From assembly GCA_965140615.1 (NCBI GenBank), contig OZ223280.1, forward strand, positions 1,268,077 to 1,332,076: DNA of 64,000 nt. Direction: 5' to 3'. A program made the position numbers and the translations under genes. This stretch comes from Candidatus Cloacimonadales bacterium (GTDB taxonomy: Bacteria > Cloacimonadota > Cloacimonadia > G963667145). Under the pieces are notes generated by a model. It made no database searches. It was not told the DNA's origin and was given only the letters and a program-made list of their open reading frames with translations. How positions within the stretch are numbered: position 1 is the stretch's first letter; each line of letters opens with the position of its first letter. Positions 10,354 through 33,866 of the stretch are shown here, piece after piece.

Positions 10354-12708
10354 ATGAAAAGATTTATTAAGATTTTTATTATAATACTTTTTTCGCAAGG
10401 TATCTTGTGGTCGGCTGCTCAAAATGCACCTATCAACACCAAATTTGATAGCGAAGCGAAAAGGACAGCTTGGTGGAAAGGGCTGGAGTATCAGTGGAAG
10501 CTGACTTTCAATGAGCTACTGGGTAATGGGAAAACTGTCAAAAAGCCTAAAGATAGTTTTTTGCAAGGGCTACTAAAAAGAACTACGCTTTTTTTGTATG
10601 GGTATGGACTTACCAACATTAGTGGATTGTCTGAACTCGATCATCTGGAGAATATAAATTGTTCTTACAATAAAATCTCTAGCATAAAAGGTATAGAAAA
10701 TCTGGTAAACCTAAAGGAATTAAAGCTAAGCGACAATCGTATAACTTCTTTGCAACGCCTAAAAAACCTCAAAAAGCTGGAATATCTGCGAGCCGATTTT
10801 AACGACCTGCACGACCTTAAAGGGCTGGAGAATTTGCTTAATCTTAGGCGAGTGTATGTGAAGCGGAACTTTATCTCGTCGATCGAGCCTTTGGCGAATA
10901 AGCCTCTTTTGGAGGAGCTATCCATTAGCTACAACAAGATTGTCTCTTTGCAGCCGCTTCGCACTAGCACCAAGCTGAAGATTTTGCTGGTGCAACACAA
11001 TCTGCTGACGGACATCAAAGGGCTGGAAAGGCTGGTGAATTTGGAGCGAGTCTTCATCTTTAAGAACCGATTAACAAGCCTAGAGGGCGTGCAAAACCTC
11101 AAGAAGCTGAAAGTTTTTATGTTCTCGCAGGAGAGTGAAATTTTGCCTGAGGCAGAAAAGGAGAAAGTAAGGAAATTTTTTGCTCGAAAAAAGGCTTTTA
11201 GGTTTGGAATTGGTGGTGGATTGTTGGTGTTGTTTTGTTTAGCATTTTTTGGCTACATTTTGATAAACATTGCCAAGAGAGTAAAAAGACGCAAAGAACG
11301 AAGGAAAGAGTTTTTGCGGTTGCGGAAACTTTTTGAAAACCAAAAGGCGTCGTTTTTCGATAATAAAAAGCGACTTTACCAGTGGTGGAACAACTTGGAT
11401 GAGCAGTGGAAACGGATTTTTAATGTGCAACTGGACAACGGAAGCTCTTTGTTCTTTCCCCGAGAAGATGAGCTACGGATGCTGGTAAATAGTCGCTTTT
11501 TTAGGATGCGAGGCGACAATCTGACCAATCTTGGGGGACTGAGGAACTGCACAAAGTTGGAGCGACTTAGCTTTTACAACGAGGGTCCAAGATTTTTGAA
11601 GCTGTTTTCCGACTTAAACTTTTTAGCAAGATTTTCTGTCTTGAAGAAGATCGAGTTTTCCACAAGAGATGTGCAAAAAATCAAAAACTTTGCAAGGCTG
11701 GAAAAGATGTTCGAGATCGTAGTGCCAGCAAGCGAAATCCCTTATACTGCCAAGGGAAGTTTTATTGATGTATCTGATGATATACAAGTGCGTTATAAGT
11801 ATCCTATTGTGGCTATCGGCAACTTTGAGGGGTTGCACCTTGGGCATGCCAAGATACTCAATCGCCTCTACGCTAGAGCTGAGGACACAGGAGGAGAGGC
11901 TTTGGTGCTGACCTATAGAGTGCATACTCGGGAGCATTTCCTCAAGAAGGGGAACAAGCCAATAGCACCTTATATGATTTTGGAGAAAGATCACAAAGAG
12001 AACTTGCTATTTCATAAGTTTGGGGTGCACTCCATCTTGTATCTGGATTTTGAGAATCAGGTGGTAAACCTTACAGCCGAAGAGTTTTTTGAAGAGATTT
12101 TGATACGGAAGTTGCATATCAGGGAGATAGTTTGCGGACACGACACCAGATTTGGCAAAGATAGGAAGGGCGACTACAAGCTGTTGACAGAGCTGGCAAA
12201 GCCCTATGGGATACACATCCGCTTGGTAGATCCACTGATGATGGGTGATGAGATAGTATGTAGCAGATTGATCCGCCAGAAGATAGAAAATGGCGACATC
12301 AACGGGATTAAGCGGTATCTCTCGCGGAATTATTCGATAGTGGGTACTGTAGAGGCAGGGCGGAAGATTGGAGGGAAGCTGGGGTTTCCCACTCTGAACC
12401 TAGAGCCCAAGCAGGCATACAAGCTTTACCCAGCACAAGGGGTGTACATAACGCACACCAAGATAGGCAACAAGGGTTACTACGGTTTGACCAACATAGG
12501 GTTTGCCCCGACGGTGAGGCAAGATATTAAAAAGAAAACAATAGAAAATTACTTGCACAAATTTAGTGGTTCGCTTTATGGACAAGAGGTGAAAATCGTG
12601 TTTTTGCAGTATCTGCGGGGCGAGAAGAAGTTTGCCTCCAAAAGTGATTTGGTGCAACAGTTGAAAGAAGATTTGAAAATGCTAAAGCAATATATAAGGG
12701 TGCATTAG
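10354..12708 (+). CDS. ribF: Fusion protein: signal peptide, leucine-rich repeats, one TM helix, a second LRR-like module, and a C-terminal riboflavin kinase / FAD synthetase (RibF)
   Basis: N-terminal LRR units (LxxLxLxxNxIxxI). TM segment FGIGGGLLVLFCLAFFGYILINI followed by KRVKRRKERRKE. The C-terminal ~310 aa (YPIVAIGNFEGLHLGHAKIL ... GDINGIKRYL...PTLNLEP) is a canonical RibF. No stop codon occurs between the modules. Confidence 0.7.
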   Translation: MKRFIKIFIIILFSQGILWSAAQNAPINTKFDSEAKRTAWWKGLEYQWKLTFNELLGNGKTVKKPKDSFLQGLLKRTTLFLYGYGLTNISGLSELDHLENINCSYNKISSIKGIENLVNLKELKLSDNRITSLQRLKNLKKLEYLRADFNDLHDLKGLENLLNLRRVYVKRNFISSIEPLANKPLLEELSISYNKIVSLQPLRTSTKLKILLVQHNLLTDIKGLERLVNLERVFIFKNRLTSLEGVQNLKKLKVFMFSQESEILPEAEKEKVRKFFARKKAFRFGIGGGLLVLFCLAFFGYILINIAKRVKRRKERRKEFLRLRKLFENQKASFFDNKKRLYQWWNNLDEQWKRIFNVQLDNGSSLFFPREDELRMLVNSRFFRMRGDNLTNLGGLRNCTKLERLSFYNEGPRFLKLFSDLNFLARFSVLKKIEFSTRDVQKIKNFARLEKMFEIVVPASEIPYTAKGSFIDVSDDIQVRYKYPIVAIGNFEGLHLGHAKILNRLYARAEDTGGEALVLTYRVHTREHFLKKGNKPIAPYMILEKDHKENLLFHKFGVHSILYLDFENQVVNLTAEEFFEEILIRKLHIREIVCGHDTRFGKDRKGDYKLLTELAKPYGIHIRLVDPLMMGDEIVCSRLIRQKIENGDINGIKRYLSRNYSIVGTVEAGRKIGGKLGFPTLNLEPKQAYKLYPAQGVYITHTKIGNKGYYGLTNIGFAPTVRQDIKKKTIENYLHKFSGSLYGQEVKIVFLQYLRGEKKFASKSDLVQQLKEDLKMLKQYIRVH

Positions 12709-13074
12709 ATGAAAGTAAAAGAAATGTTGAAGTTGGTAGATGGCAAGCTATTGAGCGTGGATGCACATCTGGAGTACGATGTGTTTTTTGGTGTGGGTTC
12801 GGATCTTATTAGCGATATCTTGATGTGTGTGAAAGACTCCGCTGTGCTTTTCACGGGGCTTATTAACCATCAGATTATCCGAGTGGCAGAGATGGTGGAT
12901 ATGCAAGCCATTGTGTTTGTGCGGGGGAAAAAGCCGACGCAAGAGATGCTAGATTTGGCAAAGGAACACGATTTGCCTGTTTTATGTTCTAACTTGTCTT
13001 TGTATGAGGCTTGTGCTTTAGCGTATCAAGGTGGATTGAAACCTCTGCCGATAAAGGTTAGCATAGATGAATAG
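12709..13074 (+). CDS. DRTGG domain protein
   Basis: 121-aa ORF. Its sequence recurs as the C-terminal domain of the HydS-like protein at 13565-15172. Confidence 0.55.
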   Translation: MKVKEMLKLVDGKLLSVDAHLEYDVFFGVGSDLISDILMCVKDSAVLFTGLINHQIIRVAEMVDMQAIVFVRGKKPTQEMLDLAKEHDLPVLCSNLSLYEACALAYQGGLKPLPIKVSIDE

Positions 13075-13546
13075 GTTCGTCTATAGCAAAGATGCGGATG
13101 TAGATCCAGATGAGTTTTTGGCTGATTTGGGGCAACCTCCCATCAACTTTGAGTTCGATATAGAGCCCAAAGATTTCGTGGTGTCGGGCAAAGCTACAAC
13201 CAAGGTGAAGAAGTACCTAAAGGTGCTGGGCATAGACGCTGGCTCTTTGCGGAGGTTTGCCGTGGCTAGCTACGAGGCGGAGATAAATGTGGTGGCTCAC
13301 TCCAAGGGTGGCAAGATGATTAGTGGAATCTACCCGGAGTTTGTGCATCAGAAGTTCAGCGACGAAGGTCCGGGCATAGATGATATAGACAAGGCGATGC
13401 AGCCCGGCTACTCCACAGCGGACGAGCTGGCACGCTCTATGGGGTTTGGTGCTGGTATGGGCTTGCCAAATATTAAAGATAATGTGGACATTATGAGGCT
13501 TACATCACAGCAAAAAACGGTGATGGAGCTGGTGGTGTTTTTTTGA
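13067..13546 (+). CDS. Anti-sigma-factor-like serine kinase (RsbW/SpoIIAB-type HATPase)
   Basis: 159-aa ORF with an HATPase_c-like core (..EAEINVVAHSKGG...DEGPGID..GFGAGMGLP). Confidence 0.6.
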   Translation: MNRFVYSKDADVDPDEFLADLGQPPINFEFDIEPKDFVVSGKATTKVKKYLKVLGIDAGSLRRFAVASYEAEINVVAHSKGGKMISGIYPEFVHQKFSDEGPGIDDIDKAMQPGYSTADELARSMGFGAGMGLPNIKDNVDIMRLTSQQKTVMELVVFF

Positions 13547-13564
13547 TGAAGATGAAGAAGAAAG

Positions 13565-15172
13565 ATGATGAGTAAAGGTTCTGTCCAAGAGGATAAAACA
13601 AAGTGCATCGGTTGCACCAGATGTGTGCGTGTCTGCCCTGTATCTGCCATTCGACTGCGAGATGGCAAGGTGGAGCGATATACGCAAAGGTGCATTAGCT
13701 GTGGGCAGTGTATCAAGGTTTGCCCAGTGGGTGCTATTCAGAGTGTTTATGATGATTTTGATCAGCTGCTGCAAGACTCAAGGTTTAAGTACCGCGTAGC
13801 TTTGTTGTCTAATGTGTTTATCGGGCAACTGCCCCCAAAAGTGGACTATAAGATGGCGACGGATGCTCTTTTGCGTTTGGGCTTCGATAGGGTGATAGAT
13901 GAGAATATGATCACCGGGGTGATGGCACCGATTTTTGCCAAGAAGCTCAATCAGGCGAAGATACGGCCATTGATTTCGTCCAATTGCCCTGCGATAGTCA
14001 GGCTCATAAGATTTAAGTATCCATCGCTGTTGCCGCACATCTTGCCTCTAGAGACCTCTGTGGAGATACTCAGCACTTACTATCGGCACTATCTAGCTCA
14101 GCAGATGGGGTGTAAACTGAAGGAGATCGGCATCTTTTTTGTAGCTCCTTGTTCTGCTCAGATTACGGCACAAAAAAGCCCTGTAGGCAGGAAGGAGTCT
14201 TCCTTGGACGGTGCTTTGGCGATGAAAGATATTTATAATCGGGTGCTGAATATTTGTTATAAGCAAAAGCATGAAGAGAAGAAAGAGGAGCAAGATAGCA
14301 AAAGCACGAAGCGGCACGAGAATTGGGGCATCTATGTTTCCGAAGGAAACCAGATAAAGAAAAGCAACTTTAAGACTTTAGCCGTCAGCGGGTTCAAGGG
14401 CACAAAAGATATTTTGACCAAGATAGAAGGTGGACAGCTAGATTTTTACGACTATGTGGTACTCCGCAGTTGCACGAACGGTTGTGTGGGTGGCGATTTG
14501 AATGCGGAGAACCCATTTATTGCTTCCAATCGGATAGCGTCGTCCGATGTTGTGTTCGAGAAGATAGATAAGGAGCTTTTTTACAAACTGTTTGAGCAAG
14601 GGGAGTTCGGATTGCGAGAGGCTCTTACTCCTGTGGCGTGCGATAAAGATAGTTTGTCTATAAAGGAAAAGATTGTTAAGATGAAAAAGTACAAAGATAT
14701 CCAAAAACTTTTGCCCGGGAAAGATTGCGGAATATGTGGCTGTCCTACTTGTGCAGATTTGGCTAAAGAGATAGTGGATGGCAACGCTAAGTTCTCCGAT
14801 TGCGTTTTTAATATGCAAGAGCAAAAGAAGGTATCGTTGCCCAAGATAATAGAGGCTATCGGGGGCAAGCTCTTGAGTCAGGAGAGAGATTTGTCGCAGA
14901 TGGAGGTAAGCAGTGTCTATGCGGGCGATTTGCTTTCGGATGTGATGGCTTCGGCTGGGGATTGCCAAGTGTGGGTAACGATAATGCAACACCAGAACAC
15001 GATAGCCGTGGCATCGCTTTTGGAGATAGAGGCGGTGATTTTTGCCAAAGACAAGAAGCCCGAGCAAAAGTTGATAGAGAAAGCTAACGAAGAAGGGATT
15101 GTGCTTATTAGCAGCTCACTTTCTTCTTTTCAGATTTCGGGGATATTGTACAAAATGGTGGTGGTAAAGTAG
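13565..15172 (+). CDS. Sensory-type [FeFe]-hydrogenase-like protein (HydS-like): 2x[4Fe-4S] ferredoxin N-terminus, an H-cluster domain with non-canonical motifs, an extra Cys cluster and a C-terminal DRTGG-like domain
   Basis: CIGCTRCVRVCP and CISCGQCIKVCP. L1-like SSNCPA (canonical TSCCPxW), L2-like APCSAQ (canonical MPCxxKxxE), L3-like SCTNGCVGG (canonical MACxxGCxxGGGQP). CGICGCPTC cluster. The C-terminus is similar to ORF 12709-13074. Confidence 0.65.
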   Translation: MMSKGSVQEDKTKCIGCTRCVRVCPVSAIRLRDGKVERYTQRCISCGQCIKVCPVGAIQSVYDDFDQLLQDSRFKYRVALLSNVFIGQLPPKVDYKMATDALLRLGFDRVIDENMITGVMAPIFAKKLNQAKIRPLISSNCPAIVRLIRFKYPSLLPHILPLETSVEILSTYYRHYLAQQMGCKLKEIGIFFVAPCSAQITAQKSPVGRKESSLDGALAMKDIYNRVLNICYKQKHEEKKEEQDSKSTKRHENWGIYVSEGNQIKKSNFKTLAVSGFKGTKDILTKIEGGQLDFYDYVVLRSCTNGCVGGDLNAENPFIASNRIASSDVVFEKIDKELFYKLFEQGEFGLREALTPVACDKDSLSIKEKIVKMKKYKDIQKLLPGKDCGICGCPTCADLAKEIVDGNAKFSDCVFNMQEQKKVSLPKIIEAIGGKLLSQERDLSQMEVSSVYAGDLLSDVMASAGDCQVWVTIMQHQNTIAVASLLEIEAVIFAKDKKPEQKLIEKANEEGIVLISSSLSSFQISGILYKMVVVK

Positions 15173-15889
15173 ATGAGGTGCAAAGCCGATCTGCATATGC
15201 ACTCTGTTTTATCGCCGTGTGGGGATTACTCTATGTCGCCTTCGCTTTTGTTTGAGAAGGCTGTGCAGAGTGGATTTCAGATGGTTTCTATCACAGAACA
15301 TAACAGTCTGGCAAATGCCAGAGCTTACGATAGCATCGCCAAAAAGTTCGGTATCCACTTTATCTATGGGGTGGAGATACAGACCAACTTGGAGGTGCAC
15401 CTTTTGGCTTATTTGCCAGATAAAGATGCGGCGGAAGCTTTTGATAAAGAGCTTTACCAGAGTTTGCCCGATATTCAAAACAAGAAAAATTTCTTTGGCG
15501 ACCAAGTGTTGATAAACGAAGATGAGATGGTGCTTGGTTTCGAGAATAGACTTTTGCTCAACTCTGTGTCGTGGGATTTGCGGACGACGGCGATCAAGGT
15601 GAAAAACTATGGAGGCTTGCTGGTGGCATCGCACATAGATGCCGATAGCTTTAGTATTAGCTCGCAATTGGGGTTTTTGCCCGAGGATATCCAGTTCGAA
15701 GCTCTGGAGGTGGTGGGCGACACTACGCCGTGGGTAAAGTACGATTTGCCTTTGGTCAAAAACTCTGACGCTCACTATCTGAAAGATTTTGGTAAGCGGT
15801 ACACGGAGTACCAGATGGACGAGATAGGGTTTGAGGGATTGAAAAATGCATTGCAAAAAAAGCAAATTGCGATAAAAAGTAGCGAATAG
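15173..15889 (+). CDS. PHP-domain phosphoesterase
   Basis: N-terminal DLHMHSVLSPCGD...ITEHN, a PHP metal-binding motif. Confidence 0.65.
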   Translation: MRCKADLHMHSVLSPCGDYSMSPSLLFEKAVQSGFQMVSITEHNSLANARAYDSIAKKFGIHFIYGVEIQTNLEVHLLAYLPDKDAAEAFDKELYQSLPDIQNKKNFFGDQVLINEDEMVLGFENRLLLNSVSWDLRTTAIKVKNYGGLLVASHIDADSFSISSQLGFLPEDIQFEALEVVGDTTPWVKYDLPLVKNSDAHYLKDFGKRYTEYQMDEIGFEGLKNALQKKQIAIKSSE

Positions 15890-15897
15890 GGGGAAAA

Positions 15898-16368
15898 GTG
15901 GTGAAATGTGAAAACGCACTTTACGATGAGCTGAAAAAGATAATCCAGACGAAGGCTGAGCTGAAAGATCCTTTGATTGAGATTTTGCGAGAGGCTCAAG
16001 AGTTGTTTGGTTATTTGCCCAAAGAGGTACAGATATTTGTTGCAGAACAGATGAATTTGCCAGTGAATAAAGTTTATGAAGTGGTAACTTTTTACAACTT
16101 TTTTTCTATGAAGCCTCGGGGGAAGTTTGTGATAAATGTTTGCACTGGGACAGCTTGCTATGTGAAGGGTGCTGCGAAAGTGATAGAGATGATAGAACAA
16201 GATTTGGGTATTCAGCTAGGGCAGACTAGCCCAGATGGCAAGTTTACGCTTTCTTCTGTGCGTTGCGTGGGAGCTTGTTCGCTAGCACCAGTGGTGGTTA
16301 TCGGGCAAGATACTTATGGCAAGGTCGTTAGCAAAGCACAGGTCAAAGAGATTTTAAGCAAATATTAG
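15898..16368 (+). CDS. NuoE/HndA-like [2Fe-2S] subunit (hydrogenase gamma subunit, HydC-like), copy 1
   Basis: Thioredoxin-like [2Fe-2S] cysteine pattern: VCTGTACYVKG ... CVGACSLAPVV. Confidence 0.8.
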   Translation: MVKCENALYDELKKIIQTKAELKDPLIEILREAQELFGYLPKEVQIFVAEQMNLPVNKVYEVVTFYNFFSMKPRGKFVINVCTGTACYVKGAAKVIEMIEQDLGIQLGQTSPDGKFTLSSVRCVGACSLAPVVVIGQDTYGKVVSKAQVKEILSKY

Positions 16369-16409
16369 TGAAAAGTAGATAAAATGAAACTGACGGAAGA
16401 CCCAAGGTT

Positions 16410-16955
16410 ATGCAAGACATATCTTTACATTTATTAGACATTTTGCAAAATTCCGTGAGTGCGGGTGCGTCGCTGATTGTCTGCCGATTTGTGAAGTCTG
16501 CGGGAGTTTTGCGAGTGTCTGTGCAGGACGATGGCAAAGGGATGGATGAGCAGACCTTGCAAGCTGCTCTAGACCCTTTTTACACTAGCAAGGTGCATCG
16601 CAAGAAGAAGGTCGGCTTGGGCATTCCGCTCTTTGCACAGAGTGCTAAGCTCTCGGGTGGCTCTTTTCAGATGCAATCTAGCGTTGGTAAAGGCACGCAA
16701 TTGGAGGCAAGCTTTGTCCTTTCCAGTATAGATGCCTTGCCACTGGGGGATATAGCTTTTAGCGTGCTTACCTGTGTTGTGTCGCATCCAGAGGTAGATT
16801 TTGTGGTGGAGAGTGTGGTGGAGCAAGAGAAAGATTATTTTGATACTCGTCTGATCAAAAAGGAGTTAGAGGGCGTGCCCTTGGATCAGCCAGAGATAAG
16901 AGCTTTTATAGAAGAGCTTCTTAACCAGCAGATAGTAAAATTGGAGGAAAGATGA
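16410..16955 (+). CDS. Histidine-kinase-like ATPase domain protein (HATPase_c only)
   Basis: ..VQDDGKGMDEQTL...GLGIPL.. The position between NuoE-like and NuoF-like genes matches HydABCD-type operons. Confidence 0.6.
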   Translation: MQDISLHLLDILQNSVSAGASLIVCRFVKSAGVLRVSVQDDGKGMDEQTLQAALDPFYTSKVHRKKKVGLGIPLFAQSAKLSGGSFQMQSSVGKGTQLEASFVLSSIDALPLGDIAFSVLTCVVSHPEVDFVVESVVEQEKDYFDTRLIKKELEGVPLDQPEIRAFIEELLNQQIVKLEER

Positions 16956-17305
16956 AGTCGTTAGCAGAGTTGAAAAAGTTGAAAGAAGAAGTTCAGAAAA
17001 AGATGAACTTGAGAAATTCGGATTATAAATATAAAATCGTGGTAGGTATGGGCACTTCTGGTATCGCGATGGGAGCTAGAGAAGTTATGAGAGCTTTTTT
17101 GGATGAAATATCCAAAAGAGATATTTCGGGAGTAGTGGTAACCCAGAGTGGTGAGAAAGGTGCCTCTAGTATGGAGCCTGTAGTGGATGTGTTGGAAAGG
17201 GATGGTAAGGTTGTTACTTATTGCCAGATGAGTGCCGAGAAGGCGAAAAAAGTTATCAGTGAGCATATTGTTAATGGAAATATTATTAGTGAATATTTGA
17301 TTTAG
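16952..17305 (+). CDS. Thioredoxin-like ferredoxin-fold protein (HndB/HydD-like), apparently cysteine-depleted
   Basis: 117 aa with only one Cys. GMGTSGIAMGA sits where the CxGxxC motif would be. Confidence 0.5.
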   Translation: MKSLAELKKLKEEVQKKMNLRNSDYKYKIVVGMGTSGIAMGAREVMRAFLDEISKRDISGVVVTQSGEKGASSMEPVVDVLERDGKVVTYCQMSAEKAKKVISEHIVNGNIISEYLI

Positions 17306-17314
17306 AAGGTTAGT

Positions 17315-19138
17315 ATGTTAAAAAGGATTGATGTTTTACTGTGTTTTGGTTCTGGATGTGTATCTGCTGGAGCCAAAAAAATTAAGGAAGAGCTCCAAAA
17401 TCAGGTCAAAGCTTATGATATAGATAGCGAGGTAAACATCATAGAAACAGGCTGTATGGGACCTTGCGATTATGGACCTTTGATGCTTATTTATCCAGAA
17501 GGTGTTTTTTATAAACAGTTGAAACCTGAAGATATGAAAGAGGTGGTGGAAGAGCATTTTGTAAAGGGCAGAATCGTGGAGCGTCTTTTGATGAAAGATG
17601 AATCTGTGTCTGCAAGGGCTATTCGCAATGTGGAAGATGTGCCTTTTTACCAGAACCAAACCAAGATAGCACTCAAGCATTGCGGCTATGTAGATCCTGA
17701 GTCGCTGGAGGAGTATGTGGCTGTGGATGGCTACGCTGCTTTGGGGAAGGTATTAGAGGAGATGTCGCCCGATGAGGTGATAAAGCAGATAGCCATCTCG
17801 GGCTTGCGAGGTAGAGGAGGTGGGGGTTTTCCCACGCACCTCAAGTGGAAGTTTGCTAGAGCTGCCAGTAGCGACGATGGCGTAAAGTATATGATATGCA
17901 ACGGCGATGAGGGAGATCCGGGAGCTTTTATGGATAGGTCGCTTTTGGAAGGCGATCCGCATAAAGTACTGGAAGGAATGATGATAGCTGCTTATGCAGT
18001 GGGAGCTTGTGAGGGATTTTTTTATATTAGAGCGGAGTATCCTTTAGCTATTCAAAGAATAAAATTGGCTATCGAAAAAGCTAGAGAATTTGGGCTTTTG
18101 GGCGACAACATTTTAGGAAGTAATTTTTGTTTTGATATAGAGGTGCGTACTGGTGCAGGTGCTTTTGTGTGTGGAGAGGAAACAGCTTTGATTTCTTCTA
18201 TTGAGGGTAAGAGGGGTCATCCTAAACCAAAGCCCCCTTTCCCTGCTAACAAGGGACTCTGGGGCAAACCGACGAATATTAACAATGTGGAGACTTTTGC
18301 TAATGTTCCGTCCATCATTTTGAAAGGTGGCGATTGGTTTGCGTCGATGGGCACTAAAACCAGCAAAGGCACAAAGGTGTTTGCCCTGACTGGCGATGTG
18401 AAGAACACTGGGCTGGTGGAGGTGCCGATGGGCATCACTATCGGTGAGTTGATAGGTAAAGTGGGTGGTGGTATGAGTGATGGTCAGTTCAAGGCTGTAC
18501 AGCTGGGTGGACCCTCTGGCGGTTGCCTGACCAAAGAGCACTGGGATGTGCCGATAGATTACGACTCGTTGGTGGCTGAGGGTGCTATGATGGGTTCTGG
18601 TGGTGTGATAGTGATGAATGAAGGGAAATGTATGGTCAATGTTGCTAAATTTTTCTTGGAGTTCTCTTTGGAAGAGTCTTGTGGTAAGTGCTCCCCTTGT
18701 CGCATTGGTCTGAAGCATATGCACAATATCTTGGAGAAGATTACCGCTGGCAAGGGTACTATGGAAGATATTGTGGAGCTAGAAAAGGTTGGGGATGTGG
18801 TAAAGCGTACTTCGTTGTGCGGATTGGGGCAAACCGCTCCAAATCCTGTACTTTCTACTCTGAAATATTTCCGTAATGAATACAAAGAGCATATCGAAGA
18901 GAAAAAATGTTCGTCTCTTGTTTGCCAAGACCTTTTGCATTTTAGGATAGATAAAGCTAAATGTGTGGGGTGTTCGTTGTGTGCGAAAAAGTGTCCCACC
19001 GCTTGCATCGAAGGCTCTCGTGATGAGAAATTCACCATTTTACAAGCTGAGTGTATTAAGTGTGGGAGCTGCTTAGAGGTTTGCCCAGTGAATGCTGTGG
19101 CAAAGTTGCCGGGAAAATGGGAAGAAGAAACAATATAG
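17315..19138 (+). CDS. NuoF/HndC-like NADH-binding flavoprotein subunit (HydB-like). N-terminal Trx-like [2Fe-2S] domain and two C-terminal [4Fe-4S] ferredoxin motifs.
   Basis: GLRGRGGGGFPT, CNGDEGDPGAF, ESCGKCSPCRIG. C-terminal CVGCSLCAKKCP and CIKCGSCLEVCP. Confidence 0.88.
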   Translation: MLKRIDVLLCFGSGCVSAGAKKIKEELQNQVKAYDIDSEVNIIETGCMGPCDYGPLMLIYPEGVFYKQLKPEDMKEVVEEHFVKGRIVERLLMKDESVSARAIRNVEDVPFYQNQTKIALKHCGYVDPESLEEYVAVDGYAALGKVLEEMSPDEVIKQIAISGLRGRGGGGFPTHLKWKFARAASSDDGVKYMICNGDEGDPGAFMDRSLLEGDPHKVLEGMMIAAYAVGACEGFFYIRAEYPLAIQRIKLAIEKAREFGLLGDNILGSNFCFDIEVRTGAGAFVCGEETALISSIEGKRGHPKPKPPFPANKGLWGKPTNINNVETFANVPSIILKGGDWFASMGTKTSKGTKVFALTGDVKNTGLVEVPMGITIGELIGKVGGGMSDGQFKAVQLGGPSGGCLTKEHWDVPIDYDSLVAEGAMMGSGGVIVMNEGKCMVNVAKFFLEFSLEESCGKCSPCRIGLKHMHNILEKITAGKGTMEDIVELEKVGDVVKRTSLCGLGQTAPNPVLSTLKYFRNEYKEHIEEKKCSSLVCQDLLHFRIDKAKCVGCSLCAKKCPTACIEGSRDEKFTILQAECIKCGSCLEVCPVNAVAKLPGKWEEETI

Positions 19139-19167: not shown

Positions 19168-19608
19168 GTGTTGACTAATTTTGATAAATATCTACCAAAA
19201 CCAGAGAATATTTTACAGTTGTTGCATATGGCACAGGGTGCTAGTCCTTTGCAATACTTGAGCAAAGAAGCACTGATGGAGGTGGCGGAATATTTGAAAA
19301 TGCCTTATAATCAGGTTTATTCTGTGGCGAGTTTTTACTCTATGTTTTCTTTGAAACCCAGAAGTAAATTTGTAATTAAGGTTTGTCAGTCGCCACATTG
19401 TGTGGTGCAAGGGTCGGATAATCTTTTGGATTATTTGCAAAAAGAGACCAAGAAGATGAACGATGTGAGCCTAGAGGCTTGCCAGTGTTTGGGTGTGTGT
19501 GGCAACGCTCCTGTGGTGCTGGTCAACGACAAGGTTTACGGCAATATGACACTGGAGAAGCTGGAAGGATTGCTGCAAAACCTCAAGGAGGGTGAAAATG
19601 TTTTATAG
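19168..19608 (+). CDS. NuoE-like [2Fe-2S] subunit, copy 2
   Basis: KVCQSPHCVVQG ... CQCLGVCGNAPVV. Confidence 0.8.
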   Translation: MLTNFDKYLPKPENILQLLHMAQGASPLQYLSKEALMEVAEYLKMPYNQVYSVASFYSMFSLKPRSKFVIKVCQSPHCVVQGSDNLLDYLQKETKKMNDVSLEACQCLGVCGNAPVVLVNDKVYGNMTLEKLEGLLQNLKEGENVL

Positions 19609-21163
19609 ATCGCATATACTTTTTGTGGTGGACGATCACTCTCTGGGCAAAGGCGTGAAAGCGGTGATAAAAGCTATGAGGGACGAGCTGGCAAAAAACG
19701 GATTGGACAAAGAGGTGGGCGTGTTGGAGACGGGAACTTTGGGGTACATTTCCAAAGGAGTGCATTTCTTGGTATATCCTGATAACCTTTTGTATCACGA
19801 TGTTATGGCGGATGATGTCCCTTTTATAGTGCAAGAGCATTTCTTAAAAGGGCGACCTGTGAAACGCTTGTGCCAAGAGGCGAAGCAAGAGGTTGATTTG
19901 GCTTACTCTCAGCGGATTGTGCTGAAGAACTCTGGCAAGATAGACCCCGAGTCTATCGATGAGTATATTGCTGTGGATGGTTATCAGTCGCTGGGTAAAG
20001 CTTTGCAAATGGGTAAAGACGCTGTGTTGCAAGAGATAAAAATCTCTAAGTTGCGTGGTCGTGGAGGTGCAGGATTTCCAGCAGGAATTAAGCTGGAGAT
20101 GACAGCCAAGCAAAAAGAGAAGCAAAAGTATATTGTGGTGAACGCCGACGAGGGCGAGGCTGGGACTTTTAAAGATAGATTGATAATGGAAGGAGATCCG
20201 CATAAGTTGTTGGAAGGGATGATGATAGCGGGTTTTGTGGCAGGTGCGGATACGGGCTACATCTACATCAGAGGCGAGTATCAGCTGTGCATTAGCAGGC
20301 TAAAGAAAGCTATCAGGCAAGCCAAGGAGTATGGACTGGTGGGCAAAGATATTTTCGGTAGTGGTTTTAACTTTGATGTGGTGGTGAAAGTTGGGGCAGG
20401 GGCGTATGTCTGTGGTGAAGAGACGGCATTGTTGAACTCTTTGGAAGGTGGCAGAGGTAATCCTCGTTCTAAACCGCCTTACCCTGGTGTGAGTGGACTC
20501 TGGGGGAAACCGACGGTGGTGAATAATGTGGAGACTCTTTCTAATATGCCAGCTATTGTAGAAAAGGGTGGGGAATGGTTTGCAAGCATAGGGACTCCAG
20601 AATCTTGTGGTACGAAGGTTTATACGATTTTGGGAGATGTGAACAATCCTGGCTTGATTGAGGTACCTATGGGTACAACTTTGTCGGAGATTATTCTTAA
20701 ATATGGCGGTGGACTGAAAGAGGATGAGCGTTTTAAAGCGGCACTAGTAGGCGGGGCTGCTGGGATGTTTTTGCCTAGAGAGCTTTTACAGATTAAGCTA
20801 GATTATGAAAATTTGTCTAAAGAGTCGGCTGTGCTTGGTTCGGGAGCTATTTTGATTTTGAACGAGCGGACTAATATGCTCAATGTTTTGCGTTCGATTT
20901 TGAATTTTTTCTTGCACGAATCTTGCGGTAAATGTAGTCCTTGTCGAATTGGTTGTAAAGTACTGGTAAATATTATGGATAAGATAATTGCTGGTCAAGC
21001 AGATGCGGACGATGTGCAGAAGTTACTGAGTGTGTCTGAAGTGATGCAAAAAACATCTTTTTGTGCTTTGGGTCAATCTCCTGTGATGCCCATAGCGAGC
21101 ATGGTCAAGTACTTTGGAGATGAGTTTGAAAAGTTTATAGGAGAGGAGAAAAAATGCAAATAA
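19592..21163 (+). CDS. NuoF-like flavoprotein subunit, copy 2. Cys-less Trx-like N-terminus and no C-terminal ferredoxin domain.
   Basis: KLRGRGGAGFPAG, VNADEGEAGTF, ESCGKCSPCRIG. Ends shortly after the [4Fe-4S] N3-type motif. Confidence 0.85.
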   Translation: MKMFYRSHILFVVDDHSLGKGVKAVIKAMRDELAKNGLDKEVGVLETGTLGYISKGVHFLVYPDNLLYHDVMADDVPFIVQEHFLKGRPVKRLCQEAKQEVDLAYSQRIVLKNSGKIDPESIDEYIAVDGYQSLGKALQMGKDAVLQEIKISKLRGRGGAGFPAGIKLEMTAKQKEKQKYIVVNADEGEAGTFKDRLIMEGDPHKLLEGMMIAGFVAGADTGYIYIRGEYQLCISRLKKAIRQAKEYGLVGKDIFGSGFNFDVVVKVGAGAYVCGEETALLNSLEGGRGNPRSKPPYPGVSGLWGKPTVVNNVETLSNMPAIVEKGGEWFASIGTPESCGTKVYTILGDVNNPGLIEVPMGTTLSEIILKYGGGLKEDERFKAALVGGAAGMFLPRELLQIKLDYENLSKESAVLGSGAILILNERTNMLNVLRSILNFFLHESCGKCSPCRIGCKVLVNIMDKIIAGQADADDVQKLLSVSEVMQKTSFCALGQSPVMPIASMVKYFGDEFEKFIGEEKKCK

Positions 21164-22902
21164 CAGTTAATGGAAAAAAGATTGAAGCTAAGTCGGGTCA
21201 GACGATAATGGAAGCTGTCCGCGATGGCGGGTTCTATATCCCTAGCTTGTGCTATCACAAAGATTTGACTCCTACTGGTAATTGTGGAGTGTGTGTGGTG
21301 CAGATAGAGGGGATGGCAGCTCTGAAGAGGGCGTGTGTTACTCTTGTGGCAGATGGGATGTCCATCGTTACAGACTCTCCAGAGATAAGAAAGGTTCGCA
21401 AAGAGCTTTTGTCTTTGATATTGTTGGATCACGATGTGAAATGCCCGACTTGCGATCAAAACGGCAAGTGCGAATTGCAGGAGCTGATAAATTATATGGA
21501 CATACCAGAGTCGGACTACGAGCCGATATTTACCAAAGCTAAGGTGGACAATCTGGGTCCATCCATCGTCAAAGATACTACCAAGTGCATCCACTGTGGG
21601 CGGTGTATCACCGTGTGTAACGACATCCAAGCCGTACATGCCCTGTGTGTGGGTGGCAGAGGGTTTGATAGTGTGGTAACAGCCGCTTTTGGTTCTTCTT
21701 TGGTGGATAGTCCTTGTGTGAACTGCGGGCAGTGCACGGTGTATTGCCCAGTGGGAGCACTCAAAGAGAAAACGGAGATAGAGCAGGTGCAAGAGGCTTT
21801 GTTCGACCCAAGCAAGATTGTAGTGGTGCAAGAAGCTCCATCTGTACGGACAGCACTGGGAGAGGAGTTTGGGATGGATGCCACGGAAGTTACTGTGGGC
21901 AAGATGTATGCGGCTTTGCGTAAGTTGGGCTTCGATAGAGTGTTCGATACTAACTTCGCAGCAGATTTGACAATAATGGAAGAGGGCTCAGAGCTTATCC
22001 AGAGGATAAAAGAGGGCGGTACTTTGCCGCTTATTACTTCTTGTTCTCCCGGCTGGGTGAAGTTTGTGGAGACCTATTTCCCCGATTTTCTTCCTAATGT
22101 CTCTAGTTGCAAATCGCCACAACAGATGTTTGGAGCGATGGTCAAAACCTATTTTGCCAAGCAGGAAGGCATCGACCCCAAAGATATTGTGAGCGTGTCT
22201 ATTATGCCGTGCACAGCCAAGAAGTTTGAAGCCAAGCGACCAGAGATGAACTCCTCGGGCTATCAAGATGTCGATTGCGTGCTGACAGTTAGAGAGTTCA
22301 TTAAGATGATTAAAGGTGCTAAGCTAGATTTTAAAAATTTGCCAGAAGAGAAAGCCGACCAGCTAATGGGACAATATACAGGAGCAGGCACTATCTTCGG
22401 TGCTACAGGTGGAGTGATGGAGGCTGCTATCCGCACAGCGTACGCTATCCTTGCTGGCAAGGAGCTAGACAATCTGAATGTGGAAGCGGTGCGTGGGATG
22501 CAAGGTATCAAGGAAGCGAGCTTGGACATCCCCTTGAAGGATAGCTCGACGGTCTTGAAGGTCAATGTCGCCGTAGTACACGGGCTGGGCAATGCCAAGA
22601 GGCTATTGGAAGATGTAAGAGCGGGTAAGAGGTCTTACCACTTCATCGAGATAATGGCGTGCCCTGGAGGATGTGTGGGCGGTGGTGGACAGCCGTACGG
22701 CTCAGATATTGCCGATCGTGCCAGAAGGGGCGAGTCTCTTTACAAAGAGGACAGTAAGTGCGAATACAGGGCGTCTCACACCAATCCGATGATTAAGAAG
22801 ATTTACGCTGAGTTCTTGGGCGAACCGCTCTCGCACAAGTCGCACCAGTACCTGCACACTAGCTACAAGCCAAGAAATAAGGTAACAGGCAAGCAAGATT
22901 AG
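21154..22902 (+). CDS. hydA: [FeFe] hydrogenase catalytic subunit (HydA/HndD-like) with a [2Fe-2S] N-terminus, [4Fe-4S] F-clusters and the H-cluster
   Basis: N-terminal 2Fe-2S Cys motif. CIHCGRCITVC and CVNCGQCTVYCP. H-cluster L2 MPCTAKKFE and L3 EIMACPGGCVGGGGQP. L1 reads ITSCSPGWV (canonical TSCCPxW). Confidence 0.88.
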   Translation: MQITVNGKKIEAKSGQTIMEAVRDGGFYIPSLCYHKDLTPTGNCGVCVVQIEGMAALKRACVTLVADGMSIVTDSPEIRKVRKELLSLILLDHDVKCPTCDQNGKCELQELINYMDIPESDYEPIFTKAKVDNLGPSIVKDTTKCIHCGRCITVCNDIQAVHALCVGGRGFDSVVTAAFGSSLVDSPCVNCGQCTVYCPVGALKEKTEIEQVQEALFDPSKIVVVQEAPSVRTALGEEFGMDATEVTVGKMYAALRKLGFDRVFDTNFAADLTIMEEGSELIQRIKEGGTLPLITSCSPGWVKFVETYFPDFLPNVSSCKSPQQMFGAMVKTYFAKQEGIDPKDIVSVSIMPCTAKKFEAKRPEMNSSGYQDVDCVLTVREFIKMIKGAKLDFKNLPEEKADQLMGQYTGAGTIFGATGGVMEAAIRTAYAILAGKELDNLNVEAVRGMQGIKEASLDIPLKDSSTVLKVNVAVVHGLGNAKRLLEDVRAGKRSYHFIEIMACPGGCVGGGGQPYGSDIADRARRGESLYKEDSKCEYRASHTNPMIKKIYAEFLGEPLSHKSHQYLHTSYKPRNKVTGKQD

Positions 22903-30696: not shown

Positions 30697-31467
30697 ATGA
30701 GGATAAATAAACTGGTTTTTTTGGTTCTGCTTTTGAGTTTTTCCCTATTGTGGAGTATGCAGATGACAAAGGTGCGAGGGGCTACCTTTACTAGAGGTAA
30801 CGCCTTGGAAAAGGGAGATTTGTTCCCTGAGCATCAGGTAAAGGTGAAGAGCTTTTACATTGGAAAATATGAGGTTACACAAAAGCAGTGGAACCAGATA
30901 ATGGATAGTGTAGATTGCCCTATTAAGGGCGACGATTACCCTGTGTCTAATGTGAGCTGGTGGGACGCTGTTAAGTTTTGCAATAAGCTCTCTCGCAAAG
31001 AAAGGCTGACCCCTTGTTATAATGTGTTAAAAGGGCAGATGGTAAAGTGCGATTATGAAGCCTCGGGTTATCGCTTGCCTTCTGATGCGGAGTGGGAGCT
31101 TGCAGCTATAGGTGGGGGAGATAAATATCGCAGAAAATATGCGGGCGATGATGAGCTGGGAATGGTAGGCTGGACAGGAATTAAAGAACCACACCCAGTG
31201 GGGCAAAAGAAGCCCAATAGGCTGGGGATATACGATATGACAGGCAATGTATTTGAATGGTGCAACGACTGGTATGATGCTTATTATTACAAGCTGGCTA
31301 AGGTGCAGCCCAAGAACCCCAAAGGTGCTAATTTTGGAAGTTTCAAGTCGATAAGAGGCGGAAGCTATCTAAGTGGGAGCAAAGATGCAATGGTGCCTTA
31401 TCGTAGCTTCGCCAGACCAGTCAGACGCAAGGAAAATATCGGCTTTAGAGTGGCGAAGTCTTTTTAG
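30697..31467 (+). CDS. Formylglycine-generating-enzyme (SUMF1/FGE-sulfatase) domain protein, secreted
   Basis: Signal peptide. WWDAVKFCN, GYRLPSDAEWELAA, GNVFEWCNDWY and RGGSY are FGE-domain hallmarks. Confidence 0.7.
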   Translation: MRINKLVFLVLLLSFSLLWSMQMTKVRGATFTRGNALEKGDLFPEHQVKVKSFYIGKYEVTQKQWNQIMDSVDCPIKGDDYPVSNVSWWDAVKFCNKLSRKERLTPCYNVLKGQMVKCDYEASGYRLPSDAEWELAAIGGGDKYRRKYAGDDELGMVGWTGIKEPHPVGQKKPNRLGIYDMTGNVFEWCNDWYDAYYYKLAKVQPKNPKGANFGSFKSIRGGSYLSGSKDAMVPYRSFARPVRRKENIGFRVAKSF

Positions 31468-31474
31468 CACTACA

Positions 31475-32779
31475 ATGAAAATACTGGAAAAATACTTACT
31501 CAAGGAGTCTTTCAAGCCTTTCATCGGAGCTTTGGGGGTCTTCACTTCGCTGTTTTTGATCGATATGATTATCAGCAAACTCAGCCTTATTATCCAAAAG
31601 AAGCTTTCCTTTATGACTGTGTTGAGTTTGTTCGGCTACAATCTGCCGGCGATGGTGGCTCTGACTATCCCGATGGCTATCTTGTTTGCTTCGATTATGA
31701 CTTTCGGCAAACTTTCTATAGACAACGAGCTGACGGCTATCAAGTCTTGCGGAGTGAGCATCTACAAACTTCTGCGACCTTTGTATGTCTTGGTGATAGT
31801 TTTCTCTTGCTTTATGTTGTATTTCAACCATATTGTCTTGCCAGACAGTAACTTCTACTCTCGGGACTTGCTAATTCATATCGCTTATCGCAATCCCATT
31901 AGCAACATCAAAACAGGTGTCTTCAATAAAAACCAAAACATTTCTGATTTGGTGATTTACGCTGGCGACAAGGACAAAAAGTACCTGCGGGATGTTTTGA
32001 TTTACAACAAAGGACAAAGGGAAACTTTCCAGATTGTGAGTGCCAAGTACGGTGCTATAGAGTTGGCTAACAATGGGAACGATTTGATAGCGAAACTCTA
32101 CGAAGGCGAGATACACGAGAAGAGTCTGAAGAACCCCAACAACTACAGGGTAGTCAAGTTCCGTCAGTTCAACTTCAACATCTTTGGTGGCACTGGCGAT
32201 AGCAATTTGCGACACACGCTTAGCGATAGGGAGATGAACACGAAGCTGATGATGGAGAAGATTGGGCAGAACAATATGGTAATCTTGGGTGCAGACTCCC
32301 TGCGAGAGGTTTATCATCGACAATTGGAGAAGATGGAGCATGGCAAACAGTACGATGCCATCACCACCAAGATGCTACAAGAAGAGAACAAAGCCAAGCG
32401 TTACCAAGGGTACAACTACGCTTACTGGGTGGAGATACACAAGAAGAACGCCTTGGCGTTTGCGTGCATTATCTTCTTGTTCTTGGGAGTACCCGTGGGG
32501 CTTATGGCCAAGAGCAGCGGAGTGGGAGCAGCTTTCGGCTTTAGCATGGTGGTGTTTGTGCTGTACCACTCAATGCTCCTAGGGGGCGAAGAGCTGGCTG
32601 ACCGCGGGATAGTGGCTCCATGGCTATCGATGTGGCTAGCGAATATCGTCTTGGTCGTTTTGGCTACTATCCTTACTTGGAAGTCCAAACGAGACACCAA
32701 CGCTTTCGACTCGGTGAGGTTTAAGTTGCGTAAATTTTTCAAAAAATTTTTAAAAACTAAAGGAACTCAGATTGATTAA
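31475..32779 (+). CDS. lptF: LptF/LptG-family (YjgP/YjgQ) lipopolysaccharide export permease
   Basis: MKILEKYLLKESFKPF... start chosen at the internal Met with an upstream SD. Six-TM permease fold with a large periplasmic loop. Confidence 0.7.
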   Translation: MKILEKYLLKESFKPFIGALGVFTSLFLIDMIISKLSLIIQKKLSFMTVLSLFGYNLPAMVALTIPMAILFASIMTFGKLSIDNELTAIKSCGVSIYKLLRPLYVLVIVFSCFMLYFNHIVLPDSNFYSRDLLIHIAYRNPISNIKTGVFNKNQNISDLVIYAGDKDKKYLRDVLIYNKGQRETFQIVSAKYGAIELANNGNDLIAKLYEGEIHEKSLKNPNNYRVVKFRQFNFNIFGGTGDSNLRHTLSDREMNTKLMMEKIGQNNMVILGADSLREVYHRQLEKMEHGKQYDAITTKMLQEENKAKRYQGYNYAYWVEIHKKNALAFACIIFLFLGVPVGLMAKSSGVGAAFGFSMVVFVLYHSMLLGGEELADRGIVAPWLSMWLANIVLVVLATILTWKSKRDTNAFDSVRFKLRKFFKKFLKTKGTQID

Positions 32780-33866
32780 AATATTAGATCGCTACATATT
32801 GGGCTCTTATATCAAAAACTTTGTGCTGATAAGTTTGTCTTTTTCCGTGCTTTTTATCGTGATTAGCATCTTCGATAGGCTCACAAGGTTTATGAAGTAC
32901 GGAGCTTCTTTGTACGACGCATTGTCTTATTTCTTGTACAATATGCCTTACCTTTTCATCCTTACATCGCCCGTGGCAGTGCTTTTGTCTAGCCTATTTC
33001 TGATGAACAAACTTTCCAAATTTAATGAGTCTATCGCCGTGAGAGCTTCTGGCAGGAGCATTACAAGGATGGTGATGCCCGTTTTTATCTTCGGCTTTTT
33101 TTATAGCTTTTTTGTGATGTGGGTCGGCGAGACGATATTGCCCAAAGCTATCCAACTGCGGGAGCACACCTATGTGGTCAAGATTAGAGGCGAGAAGATG
33201 GAAGACATCAAACGACGGGCGAACATCAATTACAAGGGGCAAAACGACTTGTTTTTTAATATCGGATTTTTTGACGGTTATAGCAAGAAGTTGTACAACA
33301 TAGATATCGTGCAGTACGATCCCATCACGGGTGGACTGGTGCAGACTATCGCTGCTCAATCGGCTGTCTGGCAAGAGGATAAGTGGATTTTCAAAGGGTG
33401 CTATGTTCGCAAGTTTGAAGATGGGATGCCCACAGAGGTGGACTTTTTCAAAGATGGCAAGGTAATTCCCATCGTGGATGTCAAGCCGATAGATTTTGTT
33501 AAATCTTCCAAAGACCCTTTGGCGATGAGCTACACAGAGCTCAAAGAGTACATCCAGCGGCAGGAGAAGGTGGGCGAAAAGTCTTTGTCCGAGAGGGTAG
33601 ATTTGGCAACGAAGCTGGCTTTCCCCTTTGCTAACTTGATTATCTTGTTCTTTAGCGTGCCCATGGCGTCTGCCTCTGTGCGGAGCAAGACCAGAAGCGT
33701 GGTCTTTTTGGTGGGACTGGTGGTTTGCTTTGTCTATCTGGCAGCACTACGAGTAAGCCAAAACCTTGGCTACACGGGGGTTTTGCCACCTTTGTGGGCA
33801 GCTTGGGGACCGAATGTCCTTTTCAGCGTTTTGGGTCTATGGTTTGCTAGTAGAGCAGAGGTGTAG
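32772..33866 (+). CDS. lptG: LptF/LptG-family permease, second paralog
   Basis: MIKILDRYILGSYIKNF...; overlaps the preceding gene by 8 bp. Confidence 0.7.
   Translation: MIKILDRYILGSYIKNFVLISLSFSVLFIVISIFDRLTRFMKYGASLYDALSYFLYNMPYLFILTSPVAVLLSSLFLMNKLSKFNESIAVRASGRSITRMVMPVFIFGFFYSFFVMWVGETILPKAIQLREHTYVVKIRGEKMEDIKRRANINYKGQNDLFFNIGFFDGYSKKLYNIDIVQYDPITGGLVQTIAAQSAVWQEDKWIFKGCYVRKFEDGMPTEVDFFKDGKVIPIVDVKPIDFVKSSKDPLAMSYTELKEYIQRQEKVGEKSLSERVDLATKLAFPFANLIILFFSVPMASASVRSKTRSVVFLVGLVVCFVYLAALRVSQNLGYTGVLPPLWAAWGPNVLFSVLGLWFASRAEV

Follow-up and report, generated by a model that had tools for sequence, protein, structure and literature searches.

Among the [FeFe] hydrogenases, the M2e subclass (group D of Land et al., 2020) has been characterised through TamHydS of Thermoanaerobacter mathranii (PMC8163306), which interconverts protons and H2 slowly and reversibly near the thermodynamic potential (PMC8163306); it has a higher affinity for H2, tolerates CO, and has been put forward as a sensor, with an unknown route for its signal (PMC8163306; PMC13104023). 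Members from Cloacimonadota have been labelled HydDB 'group C1', a histidine-kinase-linked sensory class, and have a gene for a kinase domain directly upstream (PMC8542988). We describe here a locus of this kind in a stretch of 64,000 nucleotides from a Candidatus Cloacimonadales bacterium (contig OZ223280.1, positions 1,268,077 to 1,332,076; 'the window'), where a gene for a HydS-type hydrogenase homologue fused to a DRTGG domain lies ahead of a set of HydABC genes. We put a probability of about 0.55 on the region being a group D (M2e) putative H2-sensing module, with a partner-switch-like relay of DRTGG, kinase and PHP proteins, placed ahead of bifurcating-type HydABC.

Group C (M2f) HydS proteins (TmHydS of Thermotoga maritima, RaHydS of Ruminococcus albus and HfsB of Thermoanaerobacterium saccharolyticum) resemble the window protein in having an F-domain, an H-domain without C299 (in the numbering of CpI, used throughout for the active site) and a C-terminal four-cysteine cluster, and they too have been proposed to sense H2 and have group A hydrogenase genes nearby; but a PAS domain follows the C-terminal cluster at the position where the window protein has DRTGG. 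Group C HydS proteins are linked to PP2C phosphatases or histidine kinases, whereas the window module has neither PAS nor PP2C, and its PHP-family phosphoesterase is the only candidate phosphatase. The regulatory [NiFe] hydrogenase HoxBC of Cupriavidus necator, with HoxJ/HoxA, embodies the same concept, a slow, inhibitor-tolerant H2 sensor controlling catalytic hydrogenase genes (an analogy drawn by Land et al., 2020; PMC8163306), but its metal site and fold are unrelated, and its output is through a PAS-histidine kinase and a response regulator, neither of which is present here.

The locus is not new in kind, since its class, the sensory hypothesis and the position upstream of bifurcating hydrogenases have already been published, and nothing sets it apart as a member of its family, which is very large (more than 8000 proteins at E ≤ 1e-20 against TamHydS, among the candidates scored, and 1664 clusters at 50% identity with the window HydS as query at E ≤ 1e-10). 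Its interest lies elsewhere: the signal route of the group D 'sensory' hydrogenases is a stated open question, to which gene fusions of the kind found here offer a concrete, testable answer.

Class and active site of the window HydS

Eleven genes run head to tail on the + strand between 12709 and 22902, those of the sensor module coming first:

12709–13074, +, stand-alone DRTGG protein (DRTGG1), 121 amino acids; opens the sensor module; Pfam DRTGG 22.3 bits
13067–13546, +, SpoIIAB/RsbW-like GHKL serine-kinase homologue, 159 amino acids; NCBIfam spIIAB E = 2.5e-8
13565–15172, +, group D (M2e) HydS-type [FeFe]-hydrogenase homologue fused to DRTGG, 535 amino acids
13583–13744, +, N-terminal 2x[4Fe-4S] ferredoxin domain of HydS (residues 7–60); Pfam Fer4 families
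13829–14494, +, H-domain of HydS (residues 89–310); Pfam Fe_hyd_lg_C E = 4e-26
14711–14809, +, C-terminal Cx2Cx4Cx16C [4Fe-4S] motif of HydS (residues 383–415); Pfam PF04060 'FeS' E = 1.5e-10
14825–15169, +, DRTGG domain fused to HydS (DRTGG2; residues 421–535); Pfam DRTGG 21.0 bits over residues 428–528
15173–15889, +, PHP-family metal-dependent phosphoesterase, 238 amino acids; Pfam PHP E = 3.6e-9 plus PHP_C; closes the sensor module

By its sequence, the window HydS is a putative sensory hydrogenase of M2e/group D (HydDB group C1), because M2e is defined by an F-domain together with an H-domain that lacks C299, a Cx2Cx4Cx16C motif at the C terminus and the lack of PAS; the Cx2Cx4Cx16C motif, as defined in PMC8163306, is a hallmark of HydS proteins of both group C and group D. 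Its Pfam hits (19 at E ≤ 0.01) include two Fer4 motifs at residues 7–60, with cysteines 14, 17, 20 and 24, and 43, 46, 49 and 53, all eight of them invariant in homologue alignments; no PAS domain is among these hits, the C-terminal extension being DRTGG. The four H-cluster ligands are all present (C141, C196, C303 and C307, equivalent to C300, C355, C499 and C503 of CpI), as they are in all 79 loci compared from other genomes, where the cysteines of the C-terminal cluster (CGICGCPTC...C; C388-x2-C391-x4-C396-x16-C413 in the window protein) are equally invariant. An AlphaFold2 model of HydS has a mean predicted local distance difference test score (pLDDT) of 82, mostly above 90 in the H-domain, and the top Foldseek matches of this model are solved [FeFe]-hydrogenases (E about 1e-19 to 1e-15); sequence searching with HydS turned up no solved structure from group C or D. 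An earlier note, made by reading the DNA alone, had credited this open reading frame with the H-cluster fold, an extra CGICGCPTC cluster and a C-terminal DRTGG-like domain: the ligand cysteines and Foldseek matches bear out the first, the PF04060 match the second, and the Pfam DRTGG hit, though its 21.0 bits are below the gathering score of 25.2, the third.

TamHydS (435 residues) was reconstructed from its codon-optimised gene, given in the supplement to PMC13104023; one database protein matches it at 99% identity, and a Thermoanaerobacter multispecies protein at 96%. With this last orthologue, the window HydS shares 33% identity over 436 residues (E = 1e-78). Its nearest relatives beyond its own clade are HydS proteins of Cloacimonadota, at 38–42% identity. 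TamHydS and the window protein have in common the N-terminal 2x[4Fe-4S] domain, the H-domain with its four cluster cysteines, the C-terminal Cx2Cx4Cx16C motif and the absence of PAS, of C299 and of the group A proton pathway, and in both R30, R32 and R42, and an Asp before the first and the last C-terminal cysteines, are conserved.

For the active site, both window hydrogenases (HydA and HydS) were aligned with CpI, TamHydS and 79 homologues of HydS taken from other genomes, the CpI numbering being rebuilt from a HMMER alignment of the window HydA to CpI. Three signature loops had been reported as altered (SSNCPA, APCSAQ and SCTNGCVGG), with loss of Lys and Glu from the second, and the alignment agrees: SSNCPA stands in place of TSCCPG (T297–G302), with C299 changed to Asn and ligand C300 kept; APCSAQ...A in place of MPCTSK..E (M353–E361), with M353 changed to Ala, K358 to Gln and E361 to Ala, and C355 kept; and RSCTNGCVGG in place of MACHGGCVNG (M497–G506), with M497 changed to Arg, and C499 and C503 kept. 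The residues of the group A proton pathway are all exchanged as well (E279→F, E282→K, R286→A, S319→L), and on careful alignment none of the normal proton-transfer residues is present. Of the description 'non-catalytic sensory (HydS-type)', the assignment to the sensory type holds, whereas 'non-catalytic' is too strong for a class whose characterised member turns over slowly (PMC8163306).

Within group D, the window HydS shares a minority active-site pattern with the Cloacimonadota proteins (N299, A/V353, Q/H358 and R497), the window protein itself having Asn, Ala, Gln and Arg at these positions. The majority has A299, S/T353 and K358, with position 497 variable; TamHydS has Ala, Ser, Lys and Leu. 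The exchange of M353 for a hydroxyl donor (Ser/Thr) has been described as a well-conserved M2e property (PMC8163306); position 353 is Ser in 31, Thr in 29, Val in 18 and Ala in one of the 79 loci, and the window HydS, with Ala, falls in the V/A minority that it shares with Cloacimonadota, and has no such donor. For TamHydS, a different proton path has been proposed, through S249, E252, D265 and E289 (PMC13104023); of these the window protein retains E252 alone, with Val, Ser and Tyr in place of E289, D265 and S249. The pair E392/D393 is Lys/Glu in the window protein. Three HydS proteins of the Cloacimonadota type (P0008, P0011 and P0016) carry Ser where C355, an H-cluster ligand, would be expected (VPSSSQ, VPSASQ and VPSAAQ, respectively) and keep the other cluster cysteines, which suggests from the sequences that a normal H-cluster is no longer bound by some members.

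A five-part unit conserved across phyla

How widely are the neighbours of HydS shared? A genome scan gave 80 loci, in which open reading frames were called and were labelled by phmmer with the window's proteins; the loci belong to Cloacimonadota, Bacteroidales, many Clostridia, and Syntrophorhabdia along with other 'delta' lineages. Immediately upstream of HydS stands the kinase gene in 75 of 75 loci, and the pair DRTGG1-then-kinase in 73 of 75; a DRTGG gene follows HydS directly, as a separate open reading frame, in 73 of 77, and PHP comes next after DRTGG2 in 72 of 76. The five-part unit DRTGG1, SpoIIAB-like kinase, HydS, DRTGG2 and PHP is conserved across phyla. Because this sample is biased by its fused query, three loci with an unfused HydS, found by querying with TamHydS, were fetched as well (Thermoanaerobacter, Caldicellulosiruptor bescii and Coprothermobacter). 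The order in all three is DRTGG (117–123 amino acids), HATPase_c_2 (139–149), HydS (435–445), DRTGG (111–116), PHP (233–240), NuoE, HATPase_c, a small open reading frame, NuoF and HydA; since this is the order of the window too, the gene arrangement makes the window cluster orthologous to that around the TamHydS orthologue, in which HydS likewise has DRTGG, HATPase_c_2 kinase, DRTGG and PHP as its flanks and lies upstream of NuoE-HATPase-Fdx-NuoF-HydA.

The use of DRTGG in place of PAS/PP2C had struck the earlier note as departing from known HydS systems, a view that does not survive these comparisons: the same order recurs at loci across M2e, group D or HydDB-C1, including that of the Thermoanaerobacter TamHydS orthologue, and relatives keep HydS in close linkage with its DRTGG, kinase and PHP neighbours. 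The DRTGG-kinase-HydS-DRTGG-PHP wiring is the group D norm, and among the wiring features only the fusion of HydS to DRTGG is particular here. It is this that separates the window from the Cloacimonadota loci of HydDB group C1, which have the same active-site residues (N299, V/A353, H/Q358, R497) and gene order, even to a doubled NuoE/NuoF pair, but in which HydS (about 425 residues) and DRTGG2 (about 113 residues) are separate genes, as they are in Thermoanaerobacter (where DRTGG2 is a separate 111-residue gene).

In nearly all loci, indeed, HydS and DRTGG2 are separate, with a median gap of a few bases and frequently a 4-nucleotide overlap, so that a one-base error could merge the two genes. 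Might the fusion be an artefact of assembly or a frameshift, leaving nothing particular about the locus? We regard this as very improbable, and rejected it, since the same 535-residue form recurs in seven separate 90%-identity clusters of the window's clade (P0001–P0007; 67–100% identity), four of which come from different contigs of about 1.56–1.59 Mb each, and across all seven the linker and the DRTGG domain are conserved. The gene sequences thus make the fusion in this clade a real one, held in seven clusters, several on separate contigs. Ten further C-terminal HydS-DRTGG fusions were found among the best 150 representatives at 50% identity, and in a neighbour-joining tree of the HydS core the HydS-DRTGG2 fusions fall into 11 separate groups, each beside unfused proteins; since fused representatives sit apart in this way, next to unfused proteins, the tree indicates that the fusion arose repeatedly. 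Other representatives at 50% identity have different members of the unit attached to the HydS N terminus: a DRTGG1-like domain in P0325 (556 residues) and P0350 (534 residues), and a SpoIIAB-like kinase in P0367 (607 residues). The conserved unit and these fusions of HydS with DRTGG1, DRTGG2 and the kinase name concrete binding partners and a testable phospho-relay, and the window HydS-DRTGG is a ready-made sensor-plus-output construct in one chain.

Both DRTGG sequences of the window score below the gathering threshold of Pfam DRTGG (PF07085; 22.3 and 21.0 bits against 25.2), a threshold that many of their orthologues exceed. The AlphaFold2 model of DRTGG1 (12709–13074; pLDDT 92) has as its best Foldseek match in the PDB 2IOJ (AF1212, 'Pfam DRTGG'; TM-score 0.79, root-mean-square deviation 1.8 Å), followed by a CBS-DRTGG pyrophosphatase and the HPrK/P N-domain. 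The fused domain is 29% identical to DRTGG1 (E = 5e-13), and from its sequence it is a paralogue of DRTGG1 and the orthologue of the gene that other lineages have, unfused, after HydS. A D-L-(L/I)-S-D-V motif is retained in both paralogue families, as is a Thr some 12 residues further on; the two occupy the sites of the DR and TGG residues from which the domain takes its name. In DRTGG1, conservation within D-L-x-S-D-V is at least 90% for D32 and S35.

The kinase homologue has a single match of the NCBIfam type, to spIIAB, far below the family cut-off (E = 2.5e-8), and by sequence its only PDB matches are to SpoIIAB (1TID/1TH8/1L0O; E = 2.4e-4). The window copy has no Pfam match at E ≤ 0.01, and its orthologues match HATPase_c_2 (PF13581). 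Its N-box (YEAEIN..H), G1 (D.GPGI) and G2 (GFGAGMGLPNI) boxes are conserved over 79 sequences, leaving the ATP-binding boxes intact. In the PHP enzyme, the metal-ligand motifs DLHxH, TDHN, G.E, EE.H, H.D and SDAH are conserved over 77 sequences.

In 51 of 72 loci, PHP is followed by NuoE, HATPase or HydABC genes, and in these, as in the window, the sensor module is mostly co-directional with the structural genes, the gaps being short; in the other 21 of 72 such genes are absent from that position, and the five-gene unit lies beside unrelated genes. In one set of loci without HydABC genes after the module (L043, L050–L053, L068, L074 and L080, from Acutalibacteraceae and related Clostridia), it is preceded by an extra PHP gene (about 290 amino acids) and an open reading frame of about 190 amino acids with no Pfam match. 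A further open reading frame of about 154 amino acids follows the module in L043, L074 and probably L050; the copy in L043 is a C_GCAxxG_C_C redox protein.

A proposed signal route and competing explanations

What might such a unit do? An organisational parallel is offered by the SpoIIAA-SpoIIAB-SpoIIE and RsbV-RsbW-RsbU partner-switching systems, in which, as here, an alpha/beta protein of about 120 residues is followed by a GHKL serine-kinase homologue of about 150 residues encoded by an overlapping gene, and a metal-dependent phosphoesterase belongs to one unit with the kinase. In the window, the DRTGG1 stop and the kinase start overlap by 8 nucleotides (13067–13074), an order of small protein and then kinase, with overlapping stop and start, that mirrors spoIIAA-spoIIAB. 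The differences are that the small protein has the DRTGG fold and not STAS, that the phosphoesterase is PHP and not PP2C, and that there is no sigma factor in or next to the module. A partner-switching or phosphorelay mechanism is plausible from these sequences, because the kinase is SpoIIAB-like and because the fusions tie HydS, DRTGG and kinase together.

A relay sensing H2 or redox state, and its output, might then be pictured as follows. Binding of H2 and its slow oxidation at the H-cluster would reduce the accessory clusters, including the C-terminal one, and reduction of the latter would alter the attached or bound DRTGG2 domain. The SpoIIAB-like kinase would partition between two DRTGG partners, HydS-bound DRTGG2 and the free DRTGG1; one of these may be its substrate for phosphorylation, possibly at the invariant Ser of the D-L-x-S-D-V motif; PHP, as a phosphatase, would reset the relay. 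The state of the kinase or of DRTGG1 would control either the expression of HydABC (via a factor encoded elsewhere) or the enzyme itself. DRTGG would in this way take the role of STAS in classical partner switching and of PAS in group C HydS, and PHP that of PP2C. The specific form of this idea, that the five-part unit is an undescribed DRTGG-based partner switch, in which the tethered DRTGG reads the C-terminal cluster, the kinase alternates and PHP is a protein phosphatase, we hold only tentatively, and think it more probably wrong than right. If true, it would be the first defined signalling role for the DRTGG domain and would show how group D sensory hydrogenases in general pass on their signal, and the natural fusion in the window would be the simplest construct for testing it.

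Several points weigh against a sensory relay. We found no experiment in the accessible literature that ties any group D HydS to regulation, and 'functionally undefined' is still the term for group D in a 2024 survey in Cell (PMC11216029). Among named proteins, the closest kin of the PHP enzyme are nucleotide or nucleic-acid phosphoesterases and not protein phosphatases, so that it may, to judge by this kinship, act on nucleotides. Our literature search found no report of DRTGG phosphorylation, which leaves DRTGG as a kinase substrate without precedent; the conserved Ser may bind a ligand rather than be phosphorylated, because it is at the site of the canonical name-giving motif. Beside the module, neither the window nor the related loci have a conserved gene for a STAS protein, a PP2C, a sigma factor or a DNA-binding protein; at loci without adjacent HydABC, a conserved transcription factor or sigma factor beside the module was sought and none was found, the neighbours there being unrelated housekeeping genes (adenine deaminase, aminotransferase, KARI, SH3 and others). 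The 80 loci, as the best tblastn matches to the fused query, are biased toward loci with a downstream DRTGG gene, and some of the fused representatives could be artefacts of assembly or gene calling. The active site of the window HydS is weakened by the lack of K358, E289 and D265, and the binding of a di-iron subsite, as far as these residues indicate, is therefore uncertain. In the accessible literature, likewise, no phosphorylation, target or transcriptional output of the module is reported, and a full-text search of open-access literature gave no paper naming DRTGG paralogues or PHP as partners of sensory hydrogenases.

The last of the points concerning HydS itself leads to a different possibility, that HydS is a redox sensor: the K358-less subclade would have no di-iron site, or would bind it weakly, and would use its four [4Fe-4S] sites to report to the same partners how reduced the ferredoxin/NADH pool is. 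K358 anchors a cyanide ligand in group A enzymes, and the window HydS and its Cloacimonadota-like relatives exchange not only this residue (for Gln or His) but also M353 (for Ala or Val), P231/S232, P324 and E289, while the three Cloacimonadota homologues with Ser in place of C355 point the same way. We consider a redox sensor rather unlikely all the same, as neither the window HydS nor any of the 79 loci has lost one of the four H-cluster cysteines, the H-domain fold is predicted with high confidence in the model, and a Gln or His at 358 could still hydrogen-bond the cyanide ligand. Maturases for the H-cluster, of which none is encoded within the 64-kb window, would be expected of a genome that encodes a catalytic HydA. 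The subclade formed by the window lineage and Cloacimonadota bears directly on whether such HydS proteins retain the di-iron site.

Somewhat less probable again, in our view, is that HydS is a slow catalytic or electron-transfer accessory of HydABC, for example in low-flux H2 uptake or priming, with its partners tuning activity post-translationally in response to a metabolite or nucleotide. The reversible catalysis of TamHydS near the thermodynamic potential (PMC8163306) suits such a role, as does the short-gapped, usually co-directional arrangement of module and structural genes; DRTGG occurs elsewhere in metabolite-regulated enzymes (CBS-DRTGG pyrophosphatase and the HPrK/P N-domain), the named relatives of PHP act on nucleotides, and a metabolic role has been raised for the Cloacimonadota 'group C1' enzyme (PMC8542988). 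Yet the proton-relay residues are all absent, the rates measured for TamHydS are low (PMC8163306), and at 21 of 72 loci no HydABC genes come after the five-gene unit. The solved HydABC complexes that the window HydA matches (7q4v, 8a6t and 7p5h) list HydA, HydB and HydC chains; to our knowledge, they contain no HydS-like subunit. An H2-sensing module with a partner-switch-like relay remains the reading that we prefer.

The HydABC-type operon and its surroundings

The remaining seven genes of the run are as follows:

15898–16368, +, NuoE/HydC-type [2Fe-2S] subunit, first structural gene, 156 amino acids; Pfam 2Fe-2S_thioredx E = 2.9e-50
16410–16955, +, stand-alone HATPase_c protein inside the structural block, 181 amino acids; Pfam HATPase_c E = 1e-11
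16952–17305, +, small thioredoxin-like [2Fe-2S] ferredoxin, 117 amino acids; NCBIfam fdxn_Clost E = 3e-7
17315–19138, +, NuoF/HydB-type flavoprotein subunit, 607 amino acids; Pfam Complex1_51K, NADH_4Fe-4S, Fer4 and N-terminal 2Fe-2S
19168–19608, +, second NuoE, 146 amino acids; Pfam/NCBIfam
19592–21163, +, second, shorter NuoF, 523 amino acids; Pfam/NCBIfam
21154–22902, +, catalytic group A [FeFe]-hydrogenase HydA, 582 amino acids; NCBIfam FeFe_hydrog_A6 839.5 bits (cut-off 765)

From their sequences, these structural genes are a HydABC operon of the bifurcating type, the best PDB matches of the window HydA being the bifurcating HydA1 proteins of A. woodii and T. kivui. With NuoE, NuoF and HydA downstream on the same strand, a sensory-type HydS does lie upstream of a catalytic hydrogenase operon, as the earlier note had it. 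That note also counted an HK-like ATPase with the DRTGG protein, RsbW-like kinase and PHP phosphoesterase as flanking the sensor; the last three hold their place, but the ATPase travels with NuoE-Fdx-NuoF-HydA. The NuoE/HydC gene (15898–16368) separates PHP from the HATPase gene (16410–16955), which therefore belongs to the structural block and not to the sensor; in related loci the HATPase_c gene is always between or next to NuoE and Fdx, and the window protein has no HisKA/DHp domain. The position of the small ferredoxin gene (16952–17305) is also conserved in related loci, and we take the protein to resemble HndB/HydD.

The NuoE/NuoF pair is doubled in the window operon and in the Cloacimonadota loci L003, L004, L017–L019 and L021, whereas clostridial loci have one pair. 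The second NuoF (19592–21163) is without the N-terminal [2Fe-2S] and C-terminal 2x[4Fe-4S] domains of the first. In the window HydA, Ser replaces the second Cys of the classic L1 loop, while some 20 residues later there is an additional Cys (TSCSPGW and then SSCKSPQ, against TSCCPGW and SSAKSPQ in CpI). We considered this as an anomaly and rejected it: the solved HydA1 of Acetobacterium woodii (7q4v_A) carries both changes, and the combination is accordingly a known natural variant.

A scan for promoters and terminators gave matches no more than about 1.5 standard deviations above shuffled controls, and nothing usable. Immediately upstream of the module, ending one base ahead of the DRTGG1 gene at 12709, is a gene on the + strand (10354–12708) for a RibF homologue (FAD synthetase plus riboflavin kinase), which at 784 amino acids in total includes a long fused N-terminal region with leucine-rich repeats and a hydrophobic segment; the same N-terminal fusion is present in the relative L001, whose HydS is 67% identical to that of the window. 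Rfam found a single tRNA (46666–46738) and no rRNA in the window. GC skew is positive in all 2-kb bins of the window, whatever the orientation of the genes, except at 38–40 kb, a bin that is also low in GC (0.36). The host is a diderm, with LptF/G encoded at 31373–33866.

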